Assembly: GCA_035575515.1 (NCBI GenBank) | Contig: DATLXU010000136.1 | Location: 14,850 to 78,849, forward strand | DNA length: 64,000 bases | Source of the DNA: Blastocatellia bacterium | Lineage (GTDB): Bacteria; Acidobacteriota; Blastocatellia; UBA7656 | Direction of reading: 5' to 3' | Program-made: the position numbers and the translations under genes | Shown here: positions 48,280 through 64,000 of the stretch, one piece after another | How positions within the stretch are numbered: position 1 is the first letter of the stretch | Layout of the letters: each line of letters begins with the position of its first letter | The notes under the pieces: model-generated | Told to the model about the DNA's origin: nothing | Database searches by the model: none | The model's input: only the letters and a program-made list of their open reading frames with translations

Positions 48280-50784
48280 ATGAGCGTGGAAGTCAACAGC
48301 AAACAGCGCCTCGCGCAGCCGTACATGCGAGTGGTGATCGCCATCGGCATGGCCGCGCTTGCCTGGTCGCTGTGGCGACTGAAGGCTTCCACGCTCGACT
48401 GGCGCTTTCTGGTTCTCGCTTCGATCACGGTAGCCACAGGCTCACGCTTCAACATCAACATTCCGCGATTCAAATCGAACGTATCCATCTCTGACGTGTT
48501 CATCTTCCTCGCGATGCTTCTCTTTGACGGAGAAGCTGCTATAGTGCTTGGCGCAATTGAAAGCTATTGCTCGTCTTTTCGCATCACGAAAAAACGACTG
48601 ACAAGGCTTTTCAACGCTGCGGCGATGGCCTGTTCGATGTCGCTTACCGTGTTGATGCTGCGAGTTGCTTTCGGCAACATCGTCGAGATTGCTTCGGGCG
48701 ATTTCCTGAAACTGGTAATGGCTACATGCGCAATGGCTGTCGTTCAATACTTCATCAACTCCTGCTCGATAGCAATTGCAGCGGCTTTGCGCGCGAATCA
48801 GCCCGTTTGGGATACCTGGAAGACGTACTATCTGTGGACAGCCATCAGTTATTTCAGCGCGGCGCTCGCCGCAGGCGTGATAGTCAGGCTGAGTTCGATT
48901 TATGGCCTATACACCTTTGTTGCGGCTGCTCCAATCTTAGCCATCGTCTATTTCACATACCAGACCTACCTCAAGAACATAGAGGCCTCAATGGCGCAGG
49001 CGGAGCTTGCCGAACGCCATCTGGCCGAGTTGCAGGAGAGCGAAGAGAGATTTCGCAGCGCTTTCGACCATGCGCCGATAGGCATAGCGATTGTCTCGCC
49101 CGAAGGCCGCTGGCTCAGCGTCAATCGCTCGCTTTGCGAAATCGTTGGCTACTCAGAAGAGGAATTGCTTGCAACTAATACTCAGGCGATCACTCACGAA
49201 TCAGACTTCGGGCAGTTCATGTCGAAGGTCAATGAAGTGCTTGATGGAAGAACGCTGACCGAGCAGATGGAGAAGCGCTATATCCACAAAGCCGGTTACG
49301 AGGTCTGGGTGATGGCGAGCATCTCGCTCATACGCGAGCCGCGCAGCAAGGCATCGAATCTTATATTTCAGGTTCAACACATCTCCGACCGAAAGCGGGC
49401 CGAGGAGCAACTGCGCCACGAAGCTCTCCACGACATGCTTACTGGACTGCCGAACCGCGCAAATTTCATGCAAAAACTGAGAGGCGCGCTTGATCGTGTG
49501 AAAGCAGGCGGGGATGCCGCTTTCGCAGTGTTGTTTCTGGACCTGGACCGATTCAAGGTAATCAATGACAGTCTCGGCCACATGGCCGGCGATCAGTTGT
49601 TGATAGGCATAGCGCGCAGGCTACGCAACTGCCTCAGGCCGGGCGATGTGGTTGCGAGGCTTGGCGGCGATGAGTTCACTATTCTGCTCAACAACATTAA
49701 GGACAAGAGCGACGCTGAGCATGTCGCCGACCGCGTTCAGAGAATGATTTCTCAACCGTTCACGCTCGGCGGCTACGAAACAAGCACAACCGTCAGCATA
49801 GGCATCGCCTTTCCGAGCCCAGAATATCAGCAGGCCGAAGATTTGCTCCGCGATGCCGACACGGCAATGTATCAGGCCAAATCTCTTGGCAAGGCCCAGT
49901 TTGTGATCTTCGATAAGAAGATGCACACGCACGCGATGAGCATTATGCAAATAGAGTCTGACCTGCGCCGCTCCATTGACCGCCATGAGTTTCTTATCCA
50001 TTACCAGCCGATAATCTCACTTCAAAATGGAGTGCTGGCAGGATTCGAGGCTCTGATTCGCTGGCGGCATCCGGAGCGTGGGCTTATCTCTCCATCTGAT
50101 TTCATACCAGTGGCGGAAGAGACAGGTTTGATAGTTCCGATAGGCGAGTGGGTCTTAAAAGAATCTTGCAGGCAGATGCGTCGGTGGCAGAAGAGTTTTA
50201 ATTCAAGCCCGCTATTTATCAGCGTCAACCTTTCGAGCAAGCAGTTTGCGCACTCAACTTTGCTTGAACAAATTGTCGAGACACTCGACGCCACGGGTCT
50301 TGACCCGTGCTCGCTCAAGTTAGAGATAACCGAAAGCGTTGTGATGCAGAACATCGAAGTCGCAACAGGCATGCTCGAACACCTGCGCTCTATCGGCGTG
50401 CAACTGAGCATTGATGATTTCGGCACAGGCTATTCGTCTTTGAGTTATCTCTATCGCCTGCCGATTGACACGCTGAAGATTGATCGCTCATTTATCAGCC
50501 ACTTGTCTGGCAATAACGAAAACCGCGAGATAGTGCGAACGATCATCACTCTCGCTAAAACTCTCGGAATGGGCGTCGTAGCAGAAGGGATCGAGACGCA
50601 GGATCAACTCGACTTGCTCAAAAACCTAAAATGTGACTACGGGCAGGGATACCTGTATTCAAAACCGCTCGAAGCCAATGCTGCTGAACAACTGATAGCC
50701 GCGATGCAGTCTCAGGTGGCCATTTCCACGGAAATTTCTGGGGAAGTATTCCTGGGTCCACTCAAAACCGAGTACAGGATGTGA
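48280..50784 (+). CDS. membrane-anchored PAS-GGDEF-EAL protein (diguanylate cyclase/phosphodiesterase)
   Basis: About 230 aa of polytopic N-terminus, then a PAS domain, GGDEF (RLGGDEFTIL) and EAL (EALIRW, DDFGTGYSSL) motifs, all intact. Confidence 0.9.
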   Translation: MSVEVNSKQRLAQPYMRVVIAIGMAALAWSLWRLKASTLDWRFLVLASITVATGSRFNINIPRFKSNVSISDVFIFLAMLLFDGEAAIVLGAIESYCSSFRITKKRLTRLFNAAAMACSMSLTVLMLRVAFGNIVEIASGDFLKLVMATCAMAVVQYFINSCSIAIAAALRANQPVWDTWKTYYLWTAISYFSAALAAGVIVRLSSIYGLYTFVAAAPILAIVYFTYQTYLKNIEASMAQAELAERHLAELQESEERFRSAFDHAPIGIAIVSPEGRWLSVNRSLCEIVGYSEEELLATNTQAITHESDFGQFMSKVNEVLDGRTLTEQMEKRYIHKAGYEVWVMASISLIREPRSKASNLIFQVQHISDRKRAEEQLRHEALHDMLTGLPNRANFMQKLRGALDRVKAGGDAAFAVLFLDLDRFKVINDSLGHMAGDQLLIGIARRLRNCLRPGDVVARLGGDEFTILLNNIKDKSDAEHVADRVQRMISQPFTLGGYETSTTVSIGIAFPSPEYQQAEDLLRDADTAMYQAKSLGKAQFVIFDKKMHTHAMSIMQIESDLRRSIDRHEFLIHYQPIISLQNGVLAGFEALIRWRHPERGLISPSDFIPVAEETGLIVPIGEWVLKESCRQMRRWQKSFNSSPLFISVNLSSKQFAHSTLLEQIVETLDATGLDPCSLKLEITESVVMQNIEVATGMLEHLRSIGVQLSIDDFGTGYSSLSYLYRLPIDTLKIDRSFISHLSGNNENREIVRTIITLAKTLGMGVVAEGIETQDQLDLLKNLKCDYGQGYLYSKPLEANAAEQLIAAMQSQVAISTEISGEVFLGPLKTEYRM

Positions 50785-51757: not shown

Positions 51758-52495
51758 ATGTCAGCAGAGTCGGCAAACTTAAATCTTGCGCCGTGTCCGG
51801 ATTGCGGCGGCACCGGATGGGAGTTAGTCGAAGGTCGCGGCGTTCGTCCCTGCCGCTGCAAAAAAGCGGCGCGTTCGGAAGTTCTTCTCTCGCAGGCGCG
51901 CATACCCGCCCGTTTCATGCATTGCTCGTTCGATAACTTCGAGCCGCTTCAACCGTCGCTCTATCGCGCGCTGATGAACGCGCGCAAGTTCGTCGACGAG
52001 TACCCGCTCGTTGATGTCGGGCTGTTATTTTTGGGAAGCTGTGGGGTGGGGAAGACTCATTTAGCGGTTTCTGCCTTGAAGGAGTTAATCAAGAAAGGGA
52101 TTCCCGGACTTTTTTACGACTTCCGCGATCTGCTCAAAGAGATTCAAGACAGCTACAACCCGAACACGCACACTTCGGAATTGAAGATTCTGACTCCCAT
52201 CTTCGACGCAGAGGTGCTCGTGCTTGACGAGCTTGGCGCAAGCAAGCCGACCGAGTGGGTACAGGAGACTATCACTCACATCATCAACAAGCGATACAAC
52301 GACAAGAAAGTAACCATCTTCACCTCGAACTACCTCGACATGCCAATCGGCACAGCTTACGGCGAGACGCTCACGGAACGCGTGGGTGTGCGATTGCGTT
52401 CGCGCCTTTATGAGATGTGCCGCCGCATTCTCATTGAAGGCGACGACTACCGCAAGATTATGGACAGCAAGCGCGGCGGGCGCTTCTCGTCATAG
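51758..52495 (+). CDS. DnaC/DnaI-like AAA+ ATPase (putative helicase-loader-type protein) with N-terminal zinc ribbon
   Basis: CPDCGGTGW...CRC ribbon; Walker [11 protein letters not shown]; Walker B VLVLDELG. Confidence 0.7.
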
Positions 52496-52531
52496 TAACT
52501 CGAAACCATTCCGACAATTTTGATCAGACCC

Positions 52532-54292
52532 TCATCGCTGCGACGTAGCTGGCTTCAGCTCGACATTGGCCGTTGTCAAGGTCGTGCCCATCACGCGCTG
52601 AAGCTCGGCAACGGCTTTGTTGTAATCTGTCATTGCGCGAAGCTCGCGGCCACGCGCTTCAGACAGAGCGTTTTGCCGTTCAAGCACAAAATAGGTCGTC
52701 GAAAGCCCTGCTTGAAATCGGCGCACTTCGCTTTCGTATTGCTTCTCGGCAGCCTCGCGCGAAGCCTGCGCTGTCTCGACCCGCTGCCGCGCAGTCTCAA
52801 CAGCTTGAATTGCGTTTCGCACTTCCACCTCGATTGATTGTTCGAGCAATTTGCGCTGCGAATCAATCTTGCGCCCTTCCGCAAGCGCGCGCCCCAATTG
52901 CCCTTCAGCAGTTCTATTCTTCAACGGAAAGCCGAATGAGACGCCGAAGCGAAACGTGCGAAAGTCGTTGCTAAATAGATTCTTCAAGCTCTGCGTGTAT
53001 CCGCCGATTAGAAAATCGGGCAGCGGCGCAGTCGGCGGTACAATTATCGGTGGAACGCCTGCAAGTCCCGACAACTCGTTGACGCGGTCAAGCAGTAAAC
53101 CGGTCGTTGACGAGAACGGATTGCCTGTGAGCGAGCGCGTTCCGCTCAGTCCCGTCGAAGTGTACGACGCAATCAAATCAACCTGCGGCTTCGTCTGGTT
53201 CTCGAAAAACTTCGTGTCAGTCTGATTGATCTCTTTTTGCAATTCGTTCTGAGCAAGCTCAGGGCGATTAGCAAACGCCGCGCGAGTGGCTTCGTTCAAA
53301 TCCAATGTCACATCGCGCAGGTCGGGCGTTTCAGTTGGGATGATCGGCTGATTCCACTGCTTCGCCTGCCGATCTCCGAGTATCAACTGTTTGAGCGCGT
53401 TTTCGGCTCGCGTGACCGCTTCGAGCGCGGTCAACACAGCTTCGTTCCTTCTCTCCAATTCAACTTCGACCGACACAAGCTCGATAGGCGCAAGCGTGCC
53501 TTCGTTGACTTTGCGTTGATTCGTCTCAAGCTGCGTGCGCGCCAGATCAACCGCTTCACGGCGAATCTGAACGTCTTTCAACGCGAATACTAAATCCCAA
53601 TAAGCGCGCTCGACGCGCGAGACTATGTCAATTGCGCGCTGGCGAAATTGACTGTCCGAAAGATCGAGCCTGCGATTCGCAATGCGAATGCGGCGGCGCG
53701 CATCGTCAATCGAGAAGTTGCGAAGTATTGGCTGACGAATCTGAATGTTGAGCGCAGTGTTGTACTGCGGGTTGAGCGAGACAAACTGGCTGTTTGTGTC
53801 AGACCGCGAGTTCGTGAATTGCGCGAGCCACTGGCCGCCCGTCGGCAACAACTGCGTCGCGGCAAAATCATAATTAAGCGTGCTCGTCGTCAGCGTGCCG
53901 TTTGCGCCGCCCGCGAGCACAGAGCCTACGGGCACAGTCCGATGCTCGTAGAAAATCGAGGCAGTCGTGCCGATGTCTCGCGCGCCGCGCGCCGCGAACA
54001 GATCGTAATCGGCCTGCTGCACGTTTATGCGCTCGACTTCGAGTTCGCGATTATTTTCGAGCGCCATCTTCACGGCATCAAACATCGTGAGCGCGAGCGG
54101 CTGGCTCTCGTCCACGCCGACGCGCGGCACGACTGGCGTTTGCGTGGTTGCAGGAGCCGCTTGCTTTGCCTCTTGCGATGGCTTCTCGGCGAGCTTGACG
54201 ATTTGCGCCGCGCTCGTCATCGGCAATGAAATGCAAACCAATGACGCAATTGCAAATGCGCGATAAATGAATGCCTTCTGATTAATCCACAT
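52532..54292 (-). CDS. outer membrane efflux protein (TolC-like OMF) of the RND system
   Basis: Start chosen at the ATG at 54292, preceded by an AAAGG RBS. The signal peptide is MWINQKAFIYRAFAIASLVCISLPMTSAAQ. The track ORF's first 135 codons overlap the RND gene 3' end and are rejected. Confidence 0.8.
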   Translation of the reverse strand: MWINQKAFIYRAFAIASLVCISLPMTSAAQIVKLAEKPSQEAKQAAPATTQTPVVPRVGVDESQPLALTMFDAVKMALENNRELEVERINVQQADYDLFAARGARDIGTTASIFYEHRTVPVGSVLAGGANGTLTTSTLNYDFAATQLLPTGGQWLAQFTNSRSDTNSQFVSLNPQYNTALNIQIRQPILRNFSIDDARRRIRIANRRLDLSDSQFRQRAIDIVSRVERAYWDLVFALKDVQIRREAVDLARTQLETNQRKVNEGTLAPIELVSVEVELERRNEAVLTALEAVTRAENALKQLILGDRQAKQWNQPIIPTETPDLRDVTLDLNEATRAAFANRPELAQNELQKEINQTDTKFFENQTKPQVDLIASYTSTGLSGTRSLTGNPFSSTTGLLLDRVNELSGLAGVPPIIVPPTAPLPDFLIGGYTQSLKNLFSNDFRTFRFGVSFGFPLKNRTAEGQLGRALAEGRKIDSQRKLLEQSIEVEVRNAIQAVETARQRVETAQASREAAEKQYESEVRRFQAGLSTTYFVLERQNALSEARGRELRAMTDYNKAVAELQRVMGTTLTTANVELKPATSQR

Positions 54293-54390
54293 AGCTTTTA
54301 CCTTTAAACCACAGAGAACGCGCGTGGGTCGCCGAACAAACCATCTCTGTGTCTTCTCCGTGCCTCTGTTACTCGGTAGTTCTTCTGCCA

Positions 54391-57300
54391 TTATCTGAAC
54401 AAACTTAGAAACGTTGACGTTGCGGATGCCAGCTTGCGACGCGCCCACGCGAACGGCATTCGCGCGCCTCGCGCGATGCGACCCCATACAGTCGAATTCG
54501 CCCAGTCGTCGAAGATCGAATAAGCCACTGGCGTCACGAGCAGCGTCAGCAGCAAACAGAGCGTCTGCCCGCCGATGATCATTATCGCAACCGACCGACG
54601 CGAGCCTGAGCCGGGTCCCGTACCAAATGCCATCGGAATCATCCCTGCGACAAGCGCAAACGTTGTCATAAGTATTGGTCTCATACGGTCGCGGCACGCT
54701 TGAATTATCGCGTCGTATCGCGGCATGCCTTCTCTTCGACGCAGGTTGTTCGCATGGTCAATCTGCAAGATCGAGTTCTTCTTGACGATTCCGAACAGCA
54801 CGAGCACGCCGATTGACGAGTAGATGATCGAAAAGTTCTGGCCCGTCGCGAAGAGCGAGATGATCGCGAACGGTATCGAAAGCGGCAGACTCAGCAAGAT
54901 GGTCACCGGATGGATGAAGCTCTCGAACTGCGCCGCCAAAATCATGTACATCAGAATCAGCGACAGCCCAAACGCCATCAGGAACGCGCCCGCAGCGCGC
55001 CCCATCTCGCGCGAGCGCCCGCTGAACTCCGCCTCATATCCGTGATCCATCTGAACCGAGGGCAATTGCTTCATCAATCCCGCCATCACTTCCGATGCCG
55101 AGTGCCCGCGCGCGACGTTAGTCGAGATTACGACCTGCCGCTGCCGATTGTAACGATCAATCTGTGCCGGACCCGTGCCTTCGCTGAGCGAGACGACGTT
55201 ATCGAGCCGCACGTTTCCGGCCTTCAATGAGGGGACATAGAGTTGCGCGACGCCGCTCGCGTCAGCGCGATACTTTTCATCAACGCGCAACCGAACGTCG
55301 TAACGATCATCGCCTTCTTTGTATGAAGAGATGACCTGCCCGCCGACCATCGTGCGCAGCGCGCCCGCAATTGAGCCGACTGATACGCCAAGATCGCTCG
55401 CCTTGTCGCGATTGATGTTGACGCGCACTTCGGGCTTGCCCTCTTCGAGCGTCGTGTCAGTGTCGACAGCGCCCGGCGTGTTGCGCAGAATCTCGACAAC
55501 CTTGTTTGAATACTCTTTCAGTTTGGCAATCTCTGGCCCGCGAATGACGAACACAACGTCGGCGTTCACAAAGCCGCCGCCAGAGATTGCGCCGGGAACC
55601 TGCACAGCAGGGTGATAGGGCAAATATTCAGGATTTGATTGGAACCAGTTGCGCGCTGCCGCAATCAATTGCTGCTGCGAGACACTGCGCTCCTCCATCG
55701 GGACAAGATCGAAGAATATCGAAGCGCGATTGACTCGCTGCTGCTGGTCAGCGCCTACCGATGTGAGGATATGACCCACAACGCCCTGCGGAAAATCATT
55801 CTTCATCCTCTCGCTCAACTCGCGAACAACTTTGTCCGTCGTATCAAGCGATGCGCCTTCAGGGAGTCTCAGCGTCACTTCCATCTGCGCTTGATCATCC
55901 TGCGGCAAAAAGTCTTTTCCGATCCACTGGAAGAGCCAGAACGAAGAGATAGTCACAAGAAACGCCGCCAGAACAATCGTCTTGCGATGTGCCATTGACC
56001 ACTTGAGCATCGCCGTGTACGGGCCGTCAATGTAGCGGTACAGCTTCGATTCTTTCGACGAGTGTTTGCCTTCCTTCTTCCTGATGAACCGCGAAGCAAG
56101 CATCGGAGTGATCGTAAAGCTCACAAACAGCGACACGGCTATTGCAAACGCAGCAGTCCATCCGAAGCCCGCCATGAAGCGACCGACTATTCCGGTCATA
56201 AACGCGAGCGGCAGGAAGATGATTATCAGCGAAAAGGTCGTCGCCATGACCGCAAGGCCAACGTCTTTCGTGCCAGCTATCGCAGCGGCAATCGGAGACA
56301 TGCCCTTTTCTTCGATGAAGTGGTAGATGTTTTCAAGCACAACTATTGCGTCGTCTATTACGATTCCGACGCACAGCACGAGCGCGAGCATCGTGATGTT
56401 GTTGAGCGTAAGGTTCAAATACCACATCAGCGCGTAGGTGGCGATGATTGAGGTCGGAATCGCTATGCTTGAAATGATCGTCGCGCGGAAGTTGCGAATG
56501 AAAACGAGCACGACGAGCGCGGCAAAAAGCGCGCCCATCAACAGGTGCTCCTGAATCGCGTGGAACGAACCTTTTATGAACGTCGACTGATCGCGCACGA
56601 CCTGCACGTTGAAGTCAGGCGGCAGATTCTTTTTAATCTCTGCGAGCCGCTGCTTCACCGAGTCAACAACCTGCACAGTGTTTGTGCCTGACTGCTTGCG
56701 AATCTCAAGCACGACGGCCTGCTCGCCATCGAGTCGCGCTATAGTGCGAGGTTCTTCAACGCCGTCTTCAACATAAGCGATGTCGCGCACGCGAACAGGA
56801 GCCGAGCCGACATTGGCGACGATGATGTTGTTAAAATCTTCGACGCGCTCAACACGGCCCATCGTGCGCAGTGTCATCTCATTTGCGCCCTGCTCCAATC
56901 GCCCGCCAGGAATCTCGATGTTCTGCGAAGCGATGCCCTGCCGCACCTGATCAACCGTCAGGTTGTAGGCGCGCAACTTGTTCGGGTCGAGAACAATTTG
57001 AATCTCGCGCTTGCGGTCGCCGATGAATCGGACCTGGCCGACGCCGGACATTGACTCGATGTTCTGCTTAACCTGCTTGTCTACTATTTCAGTTATCTCG
57101 CGCAGGCTACGCTTGCCCGACACGGCTACAGACATCACGGGCGCGGCGTCAACGTCGAGCTTTTCAATCACAGGCGGGTCGGCGTCTTCGGGCAGGTCCC
57201 TGAGAATGCGGTTGACGCGGTCACGCACGTCTGAGGCTGCCTCATCCCCGTTTCGCTCAAGCACGAAAGTGATGAAGACCTGCGACACGCCTTCAGCAGA

Positions 57301-57552
57301 AACTGATCGAAGCTCGTCAATGCCTTCAATCGTGTTGACAGCTTCTTCAATCTTCTTCGTGACCTGCGACTCGATCTCTTCGGGCGACGCGCCTTGCACA
57401 ACTGTCGTGATGGTGATGGTCGGGAATTCAACCTTCGGGAAGAGGTCAACGCCCAGCTTCAGATAGGCGAATCCGCCAATCACGATCATGGCAAGCCCAA
57501 TCATCGTCGCGAAAACTGGCCGTTTAATACATATCTCTGCGAGCTTTTGCAT
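54391..57552 (-). CDS. RND multidrug efflux transporter permease (AcrB/AcrD/AcrF family)
   Basis: 1053 aa, 12 TM, two large periplasmic loops; MQKLAEICIKRPVFATMIGLAMIV N-terminus. Confidence 0.95.
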   Translation of the reverse strand: MQKLAEICIKRPVFATMIGLAMIVIGGFAYLKLGVDLFPKVEFPTITITTVVQGASPEEIESQVTKKIEEAVNTIEGIDELRSVSAEGVSQVFITFVLERNGDEAASDVRDRVNRILRDLPEDADPPVIEKLDVDAAPVMSVAVSGKRSLREITEIVDKQVKQNIESMSGVGQVRFIGDRKREIQIVLDPNKLRAYNLTVDQVRQGIASQNIEIPGGRLEQGANEMTLRTMGRVERVEDFNNIIVANVGSAPVRVRDIAYVEDGVEEPRTIARLDGEQAVVLEIRKQSGTNTVQVVDSVKQRLAEIKKNLPPDFNVQVVRDQSTFIKGSFHAIQEHLLMGALFAALVVLVFIRNFRATIISSIAIPTSIIATYALMWYLNLTLNNITMLALVLCVGIVIDDAIVVLENIYHFIEEKGMSPIAAAIAGTKDVGLAVMATTFSLIIIFLPLAFMTGIVGRFMAGFGWTAAFAIAVSLFVSFTITPMLASRFIRKKEGKHSSKESKLYRYIDGPYTAMLKWSMAHRKTIVLAAFLVTISSFWLFQWIGKDFLPQDDQAQMEVTLRLPEGASLDTTDKVVRELSERMKNDFPQGVVGHILTSVGADQQQRVNRASIFFDLVPMEERSVSQQQLIAAARNWFQSNPEYLPYHPAVQVPGAISGGGFVNADVVFVIRGPEIAKLKEYSNKVVEILRNTPGAVDTDTTLEEGKPEVRVNINRDKASDLGVSVGSIAGALRTMVGGQVISSYKEGDDRYDVRLRVDEKYRADASGVAQLYVPSLKAGNVRLDNVVSLSEGTGPAQIDRYNRQRQVVISTNVARGHSASEVMAGLMKQLPSVQMDHGYEAEFSGRSREMGRAAGAFLMAFGLSLILMYMILAAQFESFIHPVTILLSLPLSIPFAIISLFATGQNFSIIYSSIGVLVLFGIVKKNSILQIDHANNLRRREGMPRYDAIIQACRDRMRPILMTTFALVAGMIPMAFGTGPGSGSRRSVAIMIIGGQTLCLLLTLLVTPVAYSIFDDWANSTVWGRIARGARMPFAWARRKLASATSTFLSLFR

Positions 57553-57590
57553 ATTTCCTCAGTAGTCTATGATCAATGGTTAGTTATCTG

Positions 57591-57628
57591 AGTACTATTG
57601 CCTTGAAAATGGCTCTGGAAGCCTGTTT
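57591..57628. repeat. 38-bp imperfect palindrome ATTGCCTTGAAAATGGCT-CTGGA-AGCCTGTTTCAAGGC; second copy of the element at 8888-8925 with the loop inverted
   Basis: Near-identical arms to the copy at 8888-8925, with loop CTGGA versus TCCAG. It lies in the RND-MFP spacer. Confidence 0.65.
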
Positions 57629-57663
57629 CAAGGCAACAGCCACCCTGGCCCCCGACCCTTATT

Positions 57664-58875
57664 CTATGATGCAGCCACGCTTGCTCCATCGTGGAGCTGT
57701 TCGGTGTTGCTCGTTATAACACGGTCGCCGAGCTTGACACCCTCAACAATCTCGACCAGCGAGCCGTCGTGCGTTCCTAATTTCACCTGCCGCTCGACTG
57801 CTTTGTCGCCTTCGACAACGAAGACTTTGTTTATGCCCGCGAGCGATACGACTGCTTTTTCAGGAACCATCAGCGCCGTGCCCTTAGCGTTCGATACGAT
57901 CTGCGCGCGGGCGAACATGCCGGGTCGCAACTGACCTGATTCGTTCGGCACTTCGGCTTCCGCGATGAGCGAGCGATTCTTTTCGTCAACCGAAGGGTTG
58001 ATGCGTCGGATTATGCCTTTGAACTCGCGGTCAGGGAATGAATCAACCTTAAGCGTCACGGTCTGGCCCTGTCCAATGTTTGCCGCGAAGGTTTCCGGCA
58101 CTTCGAGCCTGAGCCTGAGCGGATGTATTTGAACGATGGTCACGATTGGCTTGCCCGGCTGAAGGTACTCGCCACGCGAGGCAATCTTCTCTTTAACAAC
58201 GCCGTTGATCGGAGAGATGATGGCCGTGTCGGTCAACTGCTTCTTTGCAAGGTCGAGCGCGGCGCGCTTTTCTTCGAGCACAGCTTCGAGATTGCGCACG
58301 TTTTCAAGCGCGGCTTCGTAACGCGCTTCGGCCTGCTCGAACGTTCGCTGATAAACGTCTAGCTGCTGCCTGGAAATATCGCCAGTCTCTGCCAGCTTCT
58401 CGGCGGCGTTCAGATCGTAGCGGGCGCGCTCAAGCCCTGACCGTGCCTGTCGCACGTCGGGCTGCTTTTCGCGGTTGAGCTTCTCGCCCCGCTTCACGCC
58501 AAGTCTAGCTTCGGCCTGACGCAGCGCAGCTTCAGCCTGTTCGACCTTCAATCGAAGCTCGCGCTCATCAAGGCGGCCAATCGTCTGCCCGCGATGCACG
58601 GGCGAGCCTACGTCAACCGTGATCTCATCGAGGTTGCCCGATGCCTGGCTCGACACAGTCACTTCGTCTTCAGCTTCGAGCGAGCCTACGACTTCGAGAC
58701 CGCGCTGAATGTCGCGTTCTACGACCTGCGTCGTCGAAACCTGAATGGGCGCGCCTTGCGCGCTGTTCATATTCTTAGTGTTCGCCTCCTGCTTGCTGCC
58801 CGAACAGGCTGCTAGCAGGGTGAGCGACGAAAGCAGGAAAACAGCAGCGAGTTTCTTTGCATTCCTTTTTATCAT
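57664..58875 (-). CDS. RND efflux membrane fusion protein (periplasmic adaptor, HlyD family)
   Basis: Start placed at the ATG giving lipoprotein signal MIKRNAKKLAAVFLLSSLTLLAAC. It has a coiled-coil hairpin and a beta-barrel. Track start 58914 is an alternative. Confidence 0.85.
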   Translation of the reverse strand: MIKRNAKKLAAVFLLSSLTLLAACSGSKQEANTKNMNSAQGAPIQVSTTQVVERDIQRGLEVVGSLEAEDEVTVSSQASGNLDEITVDVGSPVHRGQTIGRLDERELRLKVEQAEAALRQAEARLGVKRGEKLNREKQPDVRQARSGLERARYDLNAAEKLAETGDISRQQLDVYQRTFEQAEARYEAALENVRNLEAVLEEKRAALDLAKKQLTDTAIISPINGVVKEKIASRGEYLQPGKPIVTIVQIHPLRLRLEVPETFAANIGQGQTVTLKVDSFPDREFKGIIRRINPSVDEKNRSLIAEAEVPNESGQLRPGMFARAQIVSNAKGTALMVPEKAVVSLAGINKVFVVEGDKAVERQVKLGTHDGSLVEIVEGVKLGDRVITSNTEQLHDGASVAAS

Positions 58876-58946
58876 TGCGGTGGTCATCTTGTATCTCATT
58901 ACTAAGTTGCTCATTAGTGAGCGGGGTAGGGAACATGTCTTCTTAG

Positions 58947-59612
58947 TTAAACGGATTTTCGCCTGTTGCTCTTGTGTTCGGGCGCGCGAATGCCGCTCAT
59001 GAAAAGCTCAACGAAGCGGTCTGCAATCGCGCGGTTAGAGAGTTTTACGTCATCGAATTGGAACAGGTTCCGAACCTGCACCTGATGCAGAACCATTCCA
59101 ACGAAAGCGCGCGCGGCCACCGCCGGGTCTACCTTGCGGAACGCTCCGTCGGCGATGCGCTGTTTGATATAGCGGCGTATGTGATTTTTTGTTTCGCGGG
59201 CGCTCGTGTGAAAAAATATCTCAGACAGGTCGTGCCCTTCGAGCGCGCTGAAGAGCAGCAGCCGCATGAAGGTCTTGTCTTTCTCATGAAACTCAAGCAT
59301 TTCGAATGCGAGCGTGCCGAAAAAGGCGGCGTCGTCTTTGCGACTCGCGGCTTCCTTCAGATGGACTTGGAGTCGCTCGGCGCTCTGCCGGACCTTGTAA
59401 TCTAAAATCGCTGTGTAGAGATCGTCTTTTGTGGCGAAGTGGCGAAAGATGATGGCTTCGCTTACGCCCGCGCGGTCGGCAATCTCTTTAGTAGTCGTGC
59501 CGCTGAACCCCTTTTGAGAGAAAAGCTCCGCAGCGACATTGACAATCTGAAGCCGCCTGTCGCGGGCCGTCATGCGCGCGCCTGCCGCCCTGCTCGCAAT
59601 TGCAGTGACCAT
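58947..59612 (-). CDS. TetR/AcrR-family transcriptional regulator
   Basis: HTH TTKEIADRAGVSEAIIFRHFATKDDLY. It is the first gene of the efflux operon. Confidence 0.85.
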   Translation of the reverse strand: MVTAIASRAAGARMTARDRRLQIVNVAAELFSQKGFSGTTTKEIADRAGVSEAIIFRHFATKDDLYTAILDYKVRQSAERLQVHLKEAASRKDDAAFFGTLAFEMLEFHEKDKTFMRLLLFSALEGHDLSEIFFHTSARETKNHIRRYIKQRIADGAFRKVDPAVAARAFVGMVLHQVQVRNLFQFDDVKLSNRAIADRFVELFMSGIRAPEHKSNRRKSV

Positions 59613-59632
59613 ATGAATCCCCCGATTGAAGT

Positions 59633-59646
59633 AAGTAAGTACTTAC
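59633..59646. promoter_or_regulatory. putative TetR operator: perfect 14-bp palindrome AGTAAGTACTTACT
   Basis: Lies 21 bp upstream of the tetR start codon. Confidence 0.45.
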
Positions 59647-60053
59647 TATAGCAAGCCGAACGAACCAAAGCAAATTTAAGTTCGATTTTTTTCGCTGCCG
59701 GCCTCTTTGTCGGGGAAGATGAAGCTTTGTTATTATCATCCCGCTTTTACTAGGGGGAGCGAAAGGACGAACAATACGGAGCGATTCGCAATGGCACTGA
59801 CTCAGGCGGCAACCCGATAAACGGCACGCCGCGAGCGAAGAACTCTGTGACGACTTGACGAAGCAGGCGAGATCGTCATGAGGCGAAATGGCGCTCAATC
59901 GGAGGATATGAGTGCACTAAAACGCTCATCCTCTTTCCTGTTTTTCCTTTTCGCCTCATTTCTTAACACGCTCTATTTGACATGCGATGGACGGTCGAGT
60001 ACCATCCTCGCGCCTGTTAAGGGTTGTATTGAGCCTTACGCGTTCAATCTGAA

Positions 60054-60548
60054 ATGGCTATGGAAACGGCGACAAACGATTCTGTGCGGTTGCGACGTGC
60101 AACGGCGGATGACGAATCTTTTCTGTTTGAGTTGTATCGAAGCGTGCGAGCCGAAGAGATGGCCGCATGGGGATTAGATTCAGCGCAGCAGGAGATGATT
60201 TTGAAGTTACAGTTCACGGCTCAACAGCGCCACTACGACATAGCTTTTGCGGGGGCCGATCACCAAATCATAATTCTCAATGAGCAGCCAGCCGGAAGAA
60301 TTATGGTTTATCGGTCTGAGAGCGAGGTTCGGCTCGTTGACATCGCTCTTTTGTCGGAGCACAGAGGAAAAGGCGTTGGGGCTATGATAGTCAGTTCACT
60401 GATTGAAGAATCGCGGGCGGCCAGCAAGCCTGTCACGCTCCATGTTGCAAAGGATAATCGCGCCGCTCGGCTCTATGAGCGGCTTGGGTTTCAAATAACG
60501 GGCGATACTGGCAGCCATTATAAAATGGAGTGGTGGCCTAAAGATTAA
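60054..60548 (+). CDS. GNAT-family N-acetyltransferase
   Basis: 164 aa. The acetyl-CoA-binding motif region is RGKGVGAMIVSSLIEES...RLYERLGF. Confidence 0.8.
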   Translation: MAMETATNDSVRLRRATADDESFLFELYRSVRAEEMAAWGLDSAQQEMILKLQFTAQQRHYDIAFAGADHQIIILNEQPAGRIMVYRSESEVRLVDIALLSEHRGKGVGAMIVSSLIEESRAASKPVTLHVAKDNRAARLYERLGFQITGDTGSHYKMEWWPKD

Positions 60549-60579
60549 TCAATCGAGTTAATCAATCGAGCGGGGATTT

Positions 60580-60885
60580 ATGAATATGCCGGAGCGTTTT
60601 TCTATTGATATGTTCTCAGATTGCGTGAATACGAAGTTCGTGGTGCATTACGGCGATTCGCAAACAGCGAATCTTGAGCTTGTTAGCGTGACAGATGTCG
60701 GATCGTCGGCTCGCCAGGTTCAGTTCTCTCTGGTATTTGTGGGGCGCATCAATGGCGCAATCGAGCAGAGAATTTACCGCCTTGAGCATGAAAAGCTCGG
60801 CCAGCTCGACCTGTTTCTTGTTCCCATCGGCATGGACAAAAACGGCGTGCAGTACGAAGCCATTTGCAATTACGTGATTGAATAG
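60580..60885 (+). CDS. hypothetical protein (101 aa); cytoplasmic paralog of the Tat-secreted protein at 61509-62006
   Basis: Shares the pattern Y-x-L-E/Q-H-E/A-K-L-G-x-L/F-x-L-F-L/I-V-P with the 165-aa minus-strand ORF. Confidence 0.5.
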   Translation: MNMPERFSIDMFSDCVNTKFVVHYGDSQTANLELVSVTDVGSSARQVQFSLVFVGRINGAIEQRIYRLEHEKLGQLDLFLVPIGMDKNGVQYEAICNYVIE

Positions 60886-60886
60886 C

Positions 60887-61426
60887 ATGGAAATCGGACA
60901 AAAGAGAATCGCGCTCGATGATTCACGGGTCATAAGTTTCAGGCCCACAGCGCCGGAGGACGAACCGTTTCTCCAATCAGTCTATGGCAGCACGCGACTT
61001 GAAGAGCTTGCGCTCACGAACTGGAGCGAAGAACAACGTAATGCCTTCATTAAGATGCAATTCAACGCTCAGCAGATTCATTACCGCGAGTATTATCCGA
61101 GCGGCGAGCAATTCATCATTCTCGCAGATGGCAATGCTGTAGGACGTCTATACGTCGCCGAGATTGAAAAAGAGATACGCATACTCGACATAACCGTTCT
61201 TCCCGAACGCCGAAGCGCAGGCATAGGAACGCCAATCATTAGAGAATTGATGAACGAGGCGACGAGGATCGGAAAGCCGCTTCGCATTTACGTCGAAAGC
61301 TACAACCGCTCGCGCGGATTGTTCGAGCGGTTGGGGTTCGTGAAGTCGGGCGAGAGCGGCTACAGCTACCTGATGGAGTGGCGGGGGGAGAGACCCGCGG
61401 CAGCGCGCGAAGAGCGCGAGCAATGA
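60887..61426 (+). CDS. GNAT-family N-acetyltransferase (paralog of 60054-60548)
   Basis: The ATG lies 2 nt after the upstream stop. Motif region is RRSAGIGTPIIRELMNEA...GLFERLGF. Track start 60878 is a TTG extension. Confidence 0.75.
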   Translation: MEIGQKRIALDDSRVISFRPTAPEDEPFLQSVYGSTRLEELALTNWSEEQRNAFIKMQFNAQQIHYREYYPSGEQFIILADGNAVGRLYVAEIEKEIRILDITVLPERRSAGIGTPIIRELMNEATRIGKPLRIYVESYNRSRGLFERLGFVKSGESGYSYLMEWRGERPAAAREEREQ

Positions 61427-61508
61427 CGACTCCATCGCTAGTGACAGCTACGCCTGCGCTCTTCGCATGATCTATTACTGCCTTCGCTGCGAGCGATAGT
61501 TTTGTGGA

Positions 61509-62006
61509 TCAGGGATTAACGCGATTGATGATCGCCGTGCAGGTCGTCCCTGATCCTGCGCTCGCATCGCCCGGCACTATGAACAACTGAAACTTGCCGA
61601 GCTTGGCGTGCTGCACCGCATAAGTGTTCTGTCGCAAAGAGAGGGCTTGTGAGCCTGCGAATTTGAGGGCAAAGCATTCTTTTGTGCTCCTGCCCGTTCC
61701 CTTGACATAAGGCGGGTTGAGGTTCTGCACCTCAATTAAAATAAGGTCTCCAAGCTTCACATCGTTTGAAGAGAAGCTGTAGGTTGTCATAAGGGTATTT
61801 GTGAACATCTCCCTTGTGATATTTGCGAGCGGATCCTTGAGCGACTCTGCGGGAATCTCCGAGCCGATACCTGATCCAAGACGTTTCTTGTAGCCGCCCT
61901 GAGCAAAGGCTGAAGCGCTGAATCGCCCCGTAGCCAGTGCCGTTAAACCCATAATGCTGCCTGCTCTGAGAAAGCTGCGTCTCGAAGTTATCATTTTCCC
62001 CTCCAA
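61509..62006 (-). CDS. Tat-signal secreted hypothetical protein (165 aa)
   Basis: Twin-arginine motif SRRSFLRAGSIMGLTALATGRFSASAFA. The C-terminal 100 aa are homologous to the ORF at 60580-60885. Confidence 0.6.
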   Translation of the reverse strand: MEGKMITSRRSFLRAGSIMGLTALATGRFSASAFAQGGYKKRLGSGIGSEIPAESLKDPLANITREMFTNTLMTTYSFSSNDVKLGDLILIEVQNLNPPYVKGTGRSTKECFALKFAGSQALSLRQNTYAVQHAKLGKFQLFIVPGDASAGSGTTCTAIINRVNP

Positions 62007-62097
62007 AGAGATTTAGGATGCCTGATGCCTCGTGGACATTGTTGCGAGTCTAAGGCTTCAGTCGCGAGCATTCAACCCAAATTATTCTCACCAAGTA

Positions 62098-62126
62098 TTG
62101 ACTTATCTTGTATCAATGTATAGAAT
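62098..62126 (+). promoter_or_regulatory. sigma-70-like promoter candidate (TTGACT-N17-TAGAAT) for the tail-collar gene array
   Basis: Lies in the AT-rich divergent spacer, about 160 nt upstream of the ATG at 62284. Confidence 0.4.
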
Positions 62127-62283
62127 CGCTGCCACTGAAAGTAGTATTACATGAAGTGATGTATTGAAGACCTCCGGTTGGGGATAAGTTCAAGCAGTCC
62201 ATCAAGGCGTTAGGTCACGTCTGGCCTCGTTAGGTCTTTCTGTTGTTTAGCGGTTGGGCAAATAAGCTAGGAGGAAAAAGATA

Positions 62284-62787
62284 ATGGCTGAACCTTTCCT
62301 GTCAGAAATCAGAATCATGAGTTTTGTCTTCGCGCCCAAAGGCTGGGCGCTTTGCAATGGGCAACTTCTGCCCATCAACCAGAACCAAGCGCTGTTTTCG
62401 CTGTTGGGCACGACCTATGGCGGCGATGGTCGTGTGAACTTCGCATTGCCCGACCTGCGCGGGCGAGTCCCCATTCACATGGGCAGCGGGCACACGCTTG
62501 GCGAACGAGGCGGCGAACAGGCGCACACGCTTTCGATTTCCGAATTGCCGACGCATACGCATGTGCTGGTTGGAAGCAACAACGCCGCAACAACCGACAC
62601 ACCCGCAGCGAACCTCGTCTTGGGTCAGCCCGGTCTGGATCTGTATCGCGCGCCTACCAGCCTCGTAGGCATGGACCCCGGCACCATCGCAAATGTCGGC
62701 GGCAGCCAGGCGCATCTCAACATGCAACCGTTTCTGACGCTGTCGTTCTGTATTGCGCTTCAGGGCATCTTCCCCAGTCAGAATTAA
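62284..62787 (+). CDS. phage tail collar domain protein (Mdp/microcystin-dependent-protein-like), paralog 1
   Basis: AGGAGG RBS. The N-terminus MAEPFLSEIRIMSFVFAPKGWALCNGQLLPINQNQALFSLLGTTYGGDG and C-terminus GGSQAHLNMQPFLTLSFCIALQGIFP are conserved collar-domain blocks. Confidence 0.85.
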   Translation: MAEPFLSEIRIMSFVFAPKGWALCNGQLLPINQNQALFSLLGTTYGGDGRVNFALPDLRGRVPIHMGSGHTLGERGGEQAHTLSISELPTHTHVLVGSNNAATTDTPAANLVLGQPGLDLYRAPTSLVGMDPGTIANVGGSQAHLNMQPFLTLSFCIALQGIFPSQN

Positions 62788-62797
62788 GGAGGAAACA

Positions 62798-63298
62798 ATG
62801 GCACAACCTTATGTTGGAGAAATCAGAATGTTCGCCGGAAACTTCGCTCCGGCAGGCTGGATGTTTTGCGAAGGCCAATTGCTGCCTATCTCCGAAAACG
62901 AGACGTTGTTTCAATTGATAGGCACGACCTACGGCGGCGACGGAGAGTCAACCTTCGCATTGCCCGACCTGCGAGGCCGCATCCCGATTCATCAGGGCAA
63001 TGGCTTCGTGCTTGCCGAGACGGGAGGCGCGGAAGAGATTACGCTTACCGTGCAACAAATTCCCGCTCATAGTCATGCATTGCTTGCTTCAGCCGATCCA
63101 TCCAGCGCCCGCTCGCCGCAAAATAACGTTCTTGGACGCACAGGCGCAGAGGCTTACGCTTCTGAGTTCACGCCGCAAGTCTTGTCTCCGCAAAGCATGT
63201 CGGCAGTAGGAGGCAGCCAGCCGCATACGAACTTCCAGCCGTACCTTTGCATTGACTTCATCATCTCGCTGTTCGGAATCTTTCCGAGCCAGACGTAA
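62798..63298 (+). CDS. phage tail collar domain protein, paralog 2
   Basis: An AGGAGG RBS precedes the ATG at 62798. It has the same conserved N- and C-terminal blocks and a divergent middle. The track start 62753 is an extension. Confidence 0.85.
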   Translation: MAQPYVGEIRMFAGNFAPAGWMFCEGQLLPISENETLFQLIGTTYGGDGESTFALPDLRGRIPIHQGNGFVLAETGGAEEITLTVQQIPAHSHALLASADPSSARSPQNNVLGRTGAEAYASEFTPQVLSPQSMSAVGGSQPHTNFQPYLCIDFIISLFGIFPSQT

Positions 63299-63379
63299 AA
63301 AGAAGCTTTGCAGTTGAAAGCACACAGGTGATCGTTTCGATGTTCGAGGTTCATAAGGCAAAAGATAAGGAGAACTTTC

Positions 63380-63892
63380 ATGGCAGACCCTTTTGTAGCT
63401 GAAATTCGCATCTTTCCTTTCAACTTTGCTCCGCAAGGCTGGGCCTTTTGCGATGGCCAGATACTTCCGATTTCACAAAACACGGCGCTGTTTTCGCTGT
63501 TGGGCACAACCTACGGCGGCGACGGCAAATCGAATTTTGCGTTGCCTGATCTGCAGGGGCGCGCGCCGATGCATCCGGGACAGGGGCCAGGACTCTCATT
63601 GCATGATCTCGGAGAGACGGGCGGAAGCGAGACAGTTACTCTCCTGGAATCTGAGATACCATCGCACAGCCACGGCGTCAGCATGTCGGTGCGACCCGCT
63701 GATAATCTCGATCCCGGCGGACTTGCTCTCGGCACGGGCAACAACGTCTATGTCGCGCCGGGTAATCAGGTCTCTTTCTCGGGCAACGCGTTAGCGCCAG
63801 CAGGCGGCGATCAGCCGCACAACAATATGCAGCCGTACCTGACGTTGAATTTCTGTATCGCGCTGCAAGGCGTCTTTCCGCCTCGCTCCTGA
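63380..63892 (+). CDS. phage tail collar domain protein, paralog 3
   Basis: AAGGAG RBS; MADPFVAEIRIFPFNFAPQGWAFCDGQILPISQNTALFSLLGTTYGGDG ... GGDQPHNNMQPYLTLNFCIALQGVFP. Confidence 0.85.
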   Translation: MADPFVAEIRIFPFNFAPQGWAFCDGQILPISQNTALFSLLGTTYGGDGKSNFALPDLQGRAPMHPGQGPGLSLHDLGETGGSETVTLLESEIPSHSHGVSMSVRPADNLDPGGLALGTGNNVYVAPGNQVSFSGNALAPAGGDQPHNNMQPYLTLNFCIALQGVFPPRS

Positions 63893-63897
63893 TCGGG

Positions 63898-64000
63898 TGC
63901 TGGATCATTCATGCGCCGCTGTTACTGGGCGACGCCAACGGCATCGTGCTGACGAACACGGGCGGCAGCTTCACTATCACCGGCAGCGGCACGGCTGACA
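63898..64000 (+). CDS. partial ORF of a Gly/Thr-rich protein with no canonical start codon in the window (..APLLLGDANGIVLTNTGGSFTITGSGTAD), truncated by the window end
   Basis: This is the only open frame at the right edge. It has no in-frame ATG/GTG/TTG after the stop at 63763-63765, and the frame is shifted relative to collar paralog 3. Confidence 0.25.

Follow-up and report, generated by a model that had tools for sequence, protein, structure and literature searches.

Receptor-binding tips of the type found in T4 gp12 (short tail fiber), T4 gp37, and cyanophage A-1(L) gp34 (PDB 1ocy/1h6w and 8kec) have in common a collar domain followed by a His-x-His (HxH) motif, and a C-terminal strand running back to the collar; in phages, these domains are receptor-binding tips that bind lipopolysaccharide (LPS). 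Such fiber tips fold in the cytoplasm. In T4 gp12, residues H445 and H447 bind metal on the threefold axis, and in both gp12 and gp37 the HxH motifs of three chains hold this axial metal, with the part beyond them serving as the receptor-binding head. Collar proteins of Pfam family PF07484 also occur in the virophage DSLV2, where three consecutive proteins co-purify as a 1:1:1 complex, i.e. a heterotrimer of ~55 kDa that binds cyanobacterial (Synechococcus) cells or LPS (J Virol 2025, PMC12724248). In a conjugative-pilus shufflon, a PilV-tail collar fusion uses the domain as the variable tip of a surface appendage (NAR 2023, PMC9881135), and RhiB (Rhizobium rhiABC) and MrpB/"MdpB" (Microcystis; COG4675) are non-phage collar proteins too. 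Here, we analyze a stretch of 64,000 nucleotides from a Blastocatellia bacterium (contig DATLXU010000136.1, positions 14,850 to 78,849; hereafter the window, meaning the whole stretch), in which a sequence-only reading had noted three tandem phage-tail-collar genes, called "Mdp-like" after the Microcystis protein. We name these ColA, ColB, and ColC, and find that they almost certainly belong to a conserved, non-phage bacterial module. Neither the protein family nor the concept of a tripartite collar trimer is new; the chromosomal module of GNAT, DUF6916, and giant adhesin-like genes around the triad, its conservation across phyla, and the evidence from domain fusions appear to be undescribed, and our search of the literature found no account of the bacterial module or its function.

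A search with ColA, keeping one genome per species, recovers a relative in at least 581 species-level genomes. The best 80 of these are 72–81% identical to ColA and come from Acidobacteriota, Gemmatimonadota, Chloroflexota, Verrucomicrobiota, Bacteroidota, Actinomycetota, and Alpha-, Beta-, and Gammaproteobacteria, and ColA orthologs are 72–87% identical across phyla. Isolates among the relatives include Mesorhizobium, Flavobacterium maritimum, and Chiayiivirga flava. We then considered 84 loci from at least 7 phyla (9–10 when plasmids and a published cyanobacterial cluster are counted), in which open reading frames (ORFs) were called and classified against the proteins of the window. Of these 84, 78 keep the gene order A-B-C and 1 has B-C-A; 77 encode a GNAT acetyltransferase no more than 5 kb from the triad, and 67 a DUF6916 protein in the same range. 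Beside the triad, 66 have a giant ORF of 1200 amino acids (aa) or more, mostly on the same strand. We define the module as tandem A/B/C genes with a GNAT and a DUF6916 gene no farther than 5 kb away, next to an ORF of 1200 aa or more that contains a Big_9/beta-helix region common to the giants. The window locus has the A-B-C triad, two GNATs, two DUF6916 genes, and a giant gene 1.5 kb beyond ColC, and searches started from DUF6916 return to collar triads.

The same gene set is annotated in isolates. For example, the Aminobacter plasmid pANY103a encodes a 4158-aa protein, three "tail fiber proteins," a 494-aa protein, a GNAT, and a 91-aa protein, and the Paenibacillus plasmid pART37 encodes an Ig-like protein of 1592 aa, a GNAT, and three "tail fiber proteins." Among the cultured carriers are Aminobacter sp. 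SS-2016, Mesorhizobium sp. WSM4083, Flavobacterium maritimum, Chiayiivirga flava DSM 24163, Deinococcus, Paenibacillus sp. 37, and Acaryochloris. In Acaryochloris marina, the cluster AM1_3684-3690, which comprises an acetyltransferase, hypothetical genes, and three tail-collar genes, is co-induced 8–16 fold in far-red low light, and COG4675 proteins have been detected in soil metaproteomes. The collar genes are thus not the free-standing paralogs of the sequence-only reading but three ancient orthologous groups, present 1:1:1 in fixed order and accompanied in most loci by GNAT, DUF6916, and giant genes. That reading also proposed to look for partners beyond the window, where a giant adhesin-like gene indeed lies downstream, but it passed over four partner genes just upstream of the triad within the window itself (Table 1).

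ColA, ColB, and ColC match PF07484 (Phage Tail Collar) with E-values of 6.5e-28 to 1.6e-29 (gathering threshold 24 bits), scores at which the similarity cannot be chance, and ColC has an additional weak match to Gp10_C. The arrangement first described, i.e. three tandem genes with conserved ends and divergent centers, each with its own strong ribosome-binding site, is recovered here: Shine-Dalgarno-like AGGAGG or AAGGAG precedes each of the three ATGs, and the other two ORFs are 49% and 57% identical to ColA. Seventy columns are invariant across the three proteins, mostly in an N-terminal block of ~93 residues (MAxP[FY]xxEIR...FAPxGW...LLPI...GTTYGGDG...FALPDL) and a C-terminal block of ~30 residues (GG[SD]QxHxNxQP[YF]L...F.I.L.G.FP). 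These blocks agree with those of the sequence-only reading, which however overlooked an invariant PxHxH motif directly before the divergent center, found in 238 of 244 orthologs. The N-termini read MAEP in ColA, MAQP in ColB, and MADP in ColC. The collar begins 6 residues after the protein start, and the N-terminal shaft that joins a fiber to the baseplate is absent from all three.

A profile of the three proteins matches the A-1(L) long tail fiber protein gp34 (8kec) at E 1.4e-8, in an alignment that takes in the collar, a PSHQH motif, and the C-terminal QPYL block, and matches T4 gp12 (1ocy) at E 1.4e-3. PHROG tail families match the collar proteins as well, and with these hits the earlier likening to a gp12-like tip stands. 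The PSHQH of gp34 lies in the same place as the PxHxH of ColA/B/C, and, at the sequence level, the three proteins have the collar, the HxH that follows it, and the C-terminal strand returning to the collar that make up a gp12/gp37-type tip. A strong sigma-70-like promoter had also been proposed before the triad. The site, TTGACT-17-TAGAAT, is there, but only as a consensus match, given that a scan finds 3 sigma-70-like sites in 2.6 kb vs 1.5 ± 1.2 in shuffled sequence. The triad leader RNA is unstructured (z 0.9), a search of Rfam with positions 59400–64000 returned no match, and NCBIfam has no model matching the collar or DUF6916 proteins.

Table 1. Features of the window around the collar triad (positions are those of the window).
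Feature	Position	Strand	Description
GNAT 1	60054-60548	+	164 aa; Pfam Acetyltransf_1/7/10/3, weak rimI-like NCBIfam match
DUF6916 without signal peptide	60580-60885	+	101 aa
GNAT 2	60887-61426	+	179 aa (gene call on identical contig), ORF opens at TTG 60878; Pfam GNAT families
DUF6916 with twin-arginine signal	61509-61994	-	161 aa; PF21880 E 2.4e-14, residues 59-146
Sigma-70-like promoter match TTGACT-17-TAGAAT	62098-62126	+	divergent intergenic region, 10/12 consensus positions
ColA	62284-62787	+	167 aa, putative subunit A; PF07484 96.9 bits
PxHxH motif of ColA (H91-T-H93)	62554-62562	+	equivalents ColB H91/H93, ColC H96/H98
ColA hypervariable center	62563-62694	+	aa 94-137; ortholog identity 33% vs 89% scaffold; omega 0.88 vs 0.15
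ColB	62798-63298	+	166 aa from ATG giving MAQPYV, putative subunit B; PF07484 102.1 bits
ColB hypervariable center	63077-63208	+	ortholog identity 30% vs 89% scaffold; omega 0.98 vs 0.13
ColC	63380-63892	+	170 aa, putative subunit C, C-specific GPGLS insertion; PF07484 102.1 bits
ColC hypervariable center	63674-63802	+	ortholog identity 30% vs 91% scaffold; omega 0.76 vs 0.12
ORF start running off the window	63946-64000 (continues L001:10567-10884)	+	105 aa, apparent giant-adhesin beta-helix fragment

The centers form a hypervariable patch on a frozen scaffold, and this contrast, first noted among the three paralogs, is also seen between orthologs. Specifically, the median identity between paralogs is 56–62% in the scaffold and ~22% in the center, and the ortholog values of Table 1, which are medians within each orthologous group, diverge further. 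Column entropy among the 120 closest ColA homologs is 1.75 bits in residues 96–135 vs 0.27–0.33 in the flanks. The center is real but shorter than first thought (~44 aa in ColA rather than 60), and it does not differ completely: its length is kept at 41–50 residues, and a few positions are fixed, e.g. P107 and Y121 in ColA. In the scaffold, synonymous sites are saturated (median proportion of synonymous differences, pS, 0.72) with nonsynonymous divergence (dN) of ~0.1, so its conservation reflects purifying selection rather than recent transfer alone.

The sequence-only reading attributed the variable centers to diversifying selection on a binding surface, a claim that goes further than the rates allow. 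Pairwise Nei-Gojobori estimates of omega for the less saturated pairs are 0.12–0.15 in the scaffold and 0.76–0.98 in the center. At most distances synonymous sites are saturated, and the alignment of the center is poor; center values of this size are equally compatible with relaxed constraint, with mixed site classes, and with segment exchange. The raised synonymous divergence in the center is likewise compatible with segment exchange or misalignment. A shufflon or a diversity-generating retroelement was considered as the source of variation and rejected, as positions 59800–64000 hold no inverted repeats and their sole direct repeat is the paralogy itself. The locus lacks the template/variable or inverted repeats with a recombinase or reverse transcriptase that mark programmed hypervariation, and an identical protein is present on 15 contigs.

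Several lines of comparative evidence indicate that ColA, ColB, and ColC quite probably form one heterotrimeric unit. Paralog-specific scaffold residues, such as the GPGLS insertion of ColC and the MAEP/MAQP/MADP N-termini, are conserved across phyla. Among 1.84 billion representatives searched, 7128 relatives score at E ≤ 1e-30, and these include many single chains with three collar modules (~500–560 aa, e.g. B-A-C), together with two-module chains; the three-module chains that we read have proper linkers between modules. One fused B-A-C protein carries a Sec (general secretory) signal peptide and is encoded between a type IX secretion system (T9SS)-type protein and an FG-GAP giant, and another such protein adjoins an Ig/RTX protein of 1657 aa. 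Furthermore, in giants such as P0257, P0214, P0235, P0187, and others, sets of 3, 6, or 12 collars are interspersed with cadherin, Big_9, FG-GAP, Calx-beta, or PATR repeats. Extra copies of the free genes come as whole triads (L008, L033, and L089), i.e. collar amplification proceeds in units of three. We read fixed stoichiometry and order, subunit-specific residues, whole-triad copies, fusions, and the virophage heterotrimer as pointing to one A:B:C trimer.

Some of these arrangements are notable in themselves. Two or three tandem A-B-C triads occur in some genomes (L008, Gemmatimonadales; L033; L088; L089), and one IMG/VR contig has nine collar genes in a row. P0187 (4832 aa), P0293 (4616 aa), and P0273 (5991 aa) have up to 12 collars per chain, placed in threes between other repeats; such 12-collar chains would carry several pseudo-trimeric tips along one fiber.

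The giant genes lie on either side of the triad. A plus-strand giant ends within ~410 nt upstream of ColA in 33 of the 84 loci, and a giant starts within ~500 nt after ColC in 14. Their repeats vary between loci (cadherin, Big_9, Calx-beta, and He_PIG), but a region of ~900 residues, composed of a Big_9 domain and a beta-helix-like stretch, is common to them; it is N-terminal in the type found next to the window and C-terminal in the other type, and residues 100–1000 of the window giant match giants of other loci. The giants carry Sec signal peptides, and that of Flavobacterium has a T9SS-type C-terminus. Those that end just upstream of ColA (e.g. L023:3531-9944, L028:3923-9967, and L078:3610-9987) have a conserved last ~100 residues with the pattern …RLRQRQSTTVRLPGYGG..NDN.AV…GGG[YF].GG.C P.P, terminating in Cys-x(0-3)-Pro, and the window-type giant terminates in …NACNCSVP. 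This conserved end is a possible sorting or docking signal. In a Burkholderiaceae metagenome-assembled genome (MAG), a complete type I secretion system (two ABC genes, one HlyD-like, and one TolC-like; L005:1-6129) adjoins the triad, and a SapC-family gene (L101:18092-18889, Aminobacter) adjoins another. Giant partners may thus use different secretion routes in different phyla.

In the window, GNAT 1 and GNAT 2 are 37% identical and give generic matches only, with the rimI hit of GNAT 1 below threshold. DUF6916 evolves fast (28–70% identity), and the two copies of the window are 29% identical to each other. One of them begins with a twin-arginine translocation (Tat) signal, MITSRRSFLRAGSIMGLTALATGRFSASAFA/Q, encoded at 61902–61994, which has the S-R-R-x-F-L-R motif (SRRSFLR), a hydrophobic region, and an AxA site. 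Tat-type DUF6916 copies also occur in Acidobacteriota, Chloroflexota, Gammaproteobacteria, Verrucomicrobiota, and Actinomycetota, and Tat-signal ORFs in general are enriched near triads, with 48 within 4 kb, in 42 of the 84 loci, vs 8 farther away. Where loci of Thermoanaerobaculia and Proteobacteria have no Tat-type DUF6916, ColC is often followed by a member of a second, unrelated Tat-signal family, of ~235–285 aa and without a Pfam match (L017:11631-12416, L006:11698-12501, L043:11571-12281, and ~10 other loci). ColA, ColB, and ColC themselves, which start MA[EQD]P, have no signal peptide, twin-arginine or other.

Given these observations, we lean toward a model in which a domesticated receptor-binding tip serves as a surface-recognition unit together with a giant adhesin. 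The analysis shows the homology and architecture, the existence of a conserved module, how the sequences vary, the fused chains, and the presence of Tat signals; for the heterotrimer, the metal site, export, ligand binding, and the roles of the GNAT and DUF6916 proteins, we infer the following. Each chain would consist of a collar domain, made of the N- and C-terminal blocks, that projects a short excursion beginning at the invariant PxHxH and ending in the hypervariable loop of ~44 residues. One A, one B, and one C chain would most likely assemble into a heterotrimer of ~54 kDa, in which six histidines may hold metal on a pseudo-threefold axis, as in the T4 gp12/gp37 tips, and in which the three variable loops together would form a distal ligand-binding face, by analogy with the phage heads. 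The trimer would probably act with the adjacent giant, a Sec-exported cadherin/Ig/beta-helix protein, as a cell-surface recognition or tip unit, and the GNATs and DUF6916 proteins would be dedicated accessory factors. An extracytoplasmic site is suggested by the Sec signal of the fused B-A-C protein and by the enrichment of Tat-signal ORFs near triads.

Two further steps are speculative, and we consider each of them doubtful. First, the Tat-signal DUF6916 protein might be the carrier on which the folded trimer hitch-hikes across the inner membrane, which is attractive because the collar proteins have no signal of their own and a fold of this kind must form in the cytoplasm. Second, a GNAT might acetylate the invariant N-terminal Ala of the three chains, a proposal prompted by the invariant Met-Ala N-termini and the weak rimI-like match. 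An extended form of the model, in which a captured tip became an obligate A-B-C heterotrimer seated on a single-chain, three-faced beta-helix adhesin, exported folded and metal-bound on Tat-signal partners such as DUF6916 and matured by a dedicated GNAT, as a widespread, undescribed recognition organelle, seems to us unlikely. In such an organelle, the symmetry of the tip would be broken because the trimer docks on or within a single-chain giant rather than on a trimeric shaft, and whether kin, prey, host, or substrate is recognized would depend on the three hypervariable loops.

A number of points weigh against the surface-recognition model. The collar proteins that are encoded as separate subunits have no signal peptide; a Tat-signal neighbor of any kind is present in only about half of the loci, and a Tat-type DUF6916 in about a third, so Tat hitch-hiking cannot be the general export route. 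GNATs require acetyl-CoA and hence act in the cytoplasm. With an omega close to 1, the center could be a weakly constrained loop, and some of the two-module "fusions" in metagenome gene calls could be frameshift artifacts. An AlphaFold2 monomer model of ColA (40 sequences) reaches a mean predicted local distance difference test score (pLDDT) of 45 and a predicted template modeling score (pTM) of 0.27. The heterotrimer and its metal site are proposed from comparative evidence and sequence motifs, and the link between trimer and giant is a genetic one (adjacency and fusions), not a physical one.

The first alternative to the surface-recognition model is an intracellular module, in which the collar proteins, the GNAT, and the signal-less DUF6916 would serve maturation, quality control, or regulation of the giant, or a stress or light response like that of the RhiB/MrpB relatives. 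We judge this rather improbable. A hypervariable loop on a frozen scaffold is hard to fit to a housekeeping role, collar sets occur within Sec- and T9SS-exported giants, a fused triad has its own Sec signal, and Tat-signal partners are enriched around the free genes. Moreover, the module proteins are unrelated to RhiA, which is the marker of a cytoplasmic site for the rhi operon.

Only slightly less plausible, and in our view improbable, are three independent homotrimeric lectins or adhesins with their own specificities. All solved collar proteins are homotrimeric, each of the three genes has its own ribosome-binding site, and several triads coexist in some genomes (L008, L033, and L089), as would suit a set of separate binders. 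Independent lectins should however vary in number and order, and what we see is a 1:1:1 A-B-C arrangement in 78 of the 84 loci across at least 7 phyla, with extra copies that are whole triads and with invariant scaffold residues peculiar to each paralog. Three-module fusions in many lineages, collar sets of three in giants, and the virophage triad, a heterotrimer by experiment (PMC12724248), all favor a single A:B:C unit over three homotrimers.

A bacteriocin-like or contact-dependent role, which was among the functions first suggested, would have the trimer target competitors, the giant deliver a toxin, and the GNAT and DUF6916 proteins act as an immunity pair. Variable recognition loops, exported giants that recall CdiA/RTX-type systems, the type I secretion system beside the L005 locus, and the fast evolution of DUF6916 (28–70% identity) would all suit such a weapon, and GNATs serve as self-immunity enzymes in some systems. 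Yet the giants scanned contain no toxin domain, and their C-terminus is conserved rather than polymorphic; the GNAT is of a generic, conserved kind; orphan immunity genes do not occur in an array; and PADLOC gives no match for any module protein, with no other hint of a conflict system, all of which leaves antagonism very unlikely.

Last, ordinary prophage or tailocin tail-fiber genes, or a phage remnant, which the Collar domain typical of phage fibers, the NCBI label "phage tail protein," and full-length relatives of ~35% identity in isolated phages (annotated as minor tail proteins) might suggest, are refuted at the window locus, given the missing baseplate-attaching shaft, the same non-phage gene set around the triad in 84 loci, a triad GC content equal to that of the rest of the window, the rarity of triads in IMG/VR, where true phage contigs carry single collars, and an absence of sheath, tube, baseplate, capsid, terminase, and integrase genes that extends over ~32 kb on the upstream side and ~10 kb past the end of the window. 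The earlier statement that no other phage genes lie nearby therefore holds, and no tail genes continue to the right of position 64000, so that the refuting case named in that reading, a prophage or tailocin cluster there, does not arise.

The exact sequence of the window locus occurs in Blastocatellia (Acidobacteriota) MAGs, and its surroundings are those of a chromosome. Upstream of the triad are the two GNATs and two DUF6916 genes, a TetR/RND efflux operon, Lon, NrdR, RuvA, and extracytoplasmic function (ECF) sigma factors; beyond position 64000, the contig encodes the 105-aa ORF, an IS200-like Y1 transposase, a Big_9/CLIPPER/HYR protein of 2634 aa (the window giant), and CstA. The 105-aa ORF was considered as a new partner and rejected, as it is 55% identical to residues 752–854 of the giant 1.1 kb downstream and stands beside the IS200-like gene (L001:10957-11280), which separates the two. 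It seems to derive from the beta-helix region of the giant gene, either by duplication or by breakage. The position of this fragment, next to ColC, suggests that ColC was once followed directly by the giant gene, an arrangement seen in other loci.

The TetR and RND efflux operon at 52532–59612 (membrane fusion protein, AcrB-type pump, and outer-membrane factor) is not kept with the module elsewhere and is probably unrelated. A lone IstB-like IS21 helper ATPase gene at ~51918–52496 (L103:20370-20948) is probably an insertion-sequence remnant, because no IstA transposase gene adjoins it. Close to it are genes for a PAS-GGDEF-EAL protein at 48280–50784 and for a 748-aa protein without a Pfam match at ~45981–48226.

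In bacteria from soil, water, and the rhizosphere, such genes go by the labels "phage tail protein" or "microcystin-dependent protein," and they inflate prophage calls. Should the trimer set the specificity of giant adhesins, this would account for how these giants choose their targets. On the same condition, it would be a clear example of cells putting a viral device for receptor binding to new use, and binder engineering would gain a small, stable scaffold whose three loops can be exchanged.

How the locus compares with the described systems can now be set out. RhiB aligns to the ColA profile at 95% probability and keeps the HxH, but RhiB and MrpB are single collar genes, and the rhi region has no GNAT, DUF6916, or giant gene. 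The rhiABC operon was also considered as a member of the module and rejected, as neither RhiA nor RhiC resembles any of the module proteins (Collar or DUF6916). The PilV-collar protein is likewise a bacterial re-use of a phage collar domain; it is, however, a single fused domain diversified by programmed inversion, whereas the ColA/B/C locus is free of inverted repeats and recombinase genes. The virophage DSLV2 comes closer, in that its three PF07484 genes also follow one another in the same direction, are similar in size, and encode proteins with a conserved collar and a head region that is less so. The combined masses are similar as well (~54 kDa for ColA/B/C vs 58 kDa for the DSLV2 proteins), and the likeness is one of layout, size, and description. 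The DSLV2 genes adjoin capsid genes and encode virion parts, whereas the module is chromosomal, has GNAT, DUF6916, and giant genes, and is devoid of virion genes. By contrast with both, the phage tips are homotrimers borne on long, baseplate-bound shafts, and in their place the bacterial module has three distinct, short, and shaftless chains, each with a much smaller head of ~44 variable residues.

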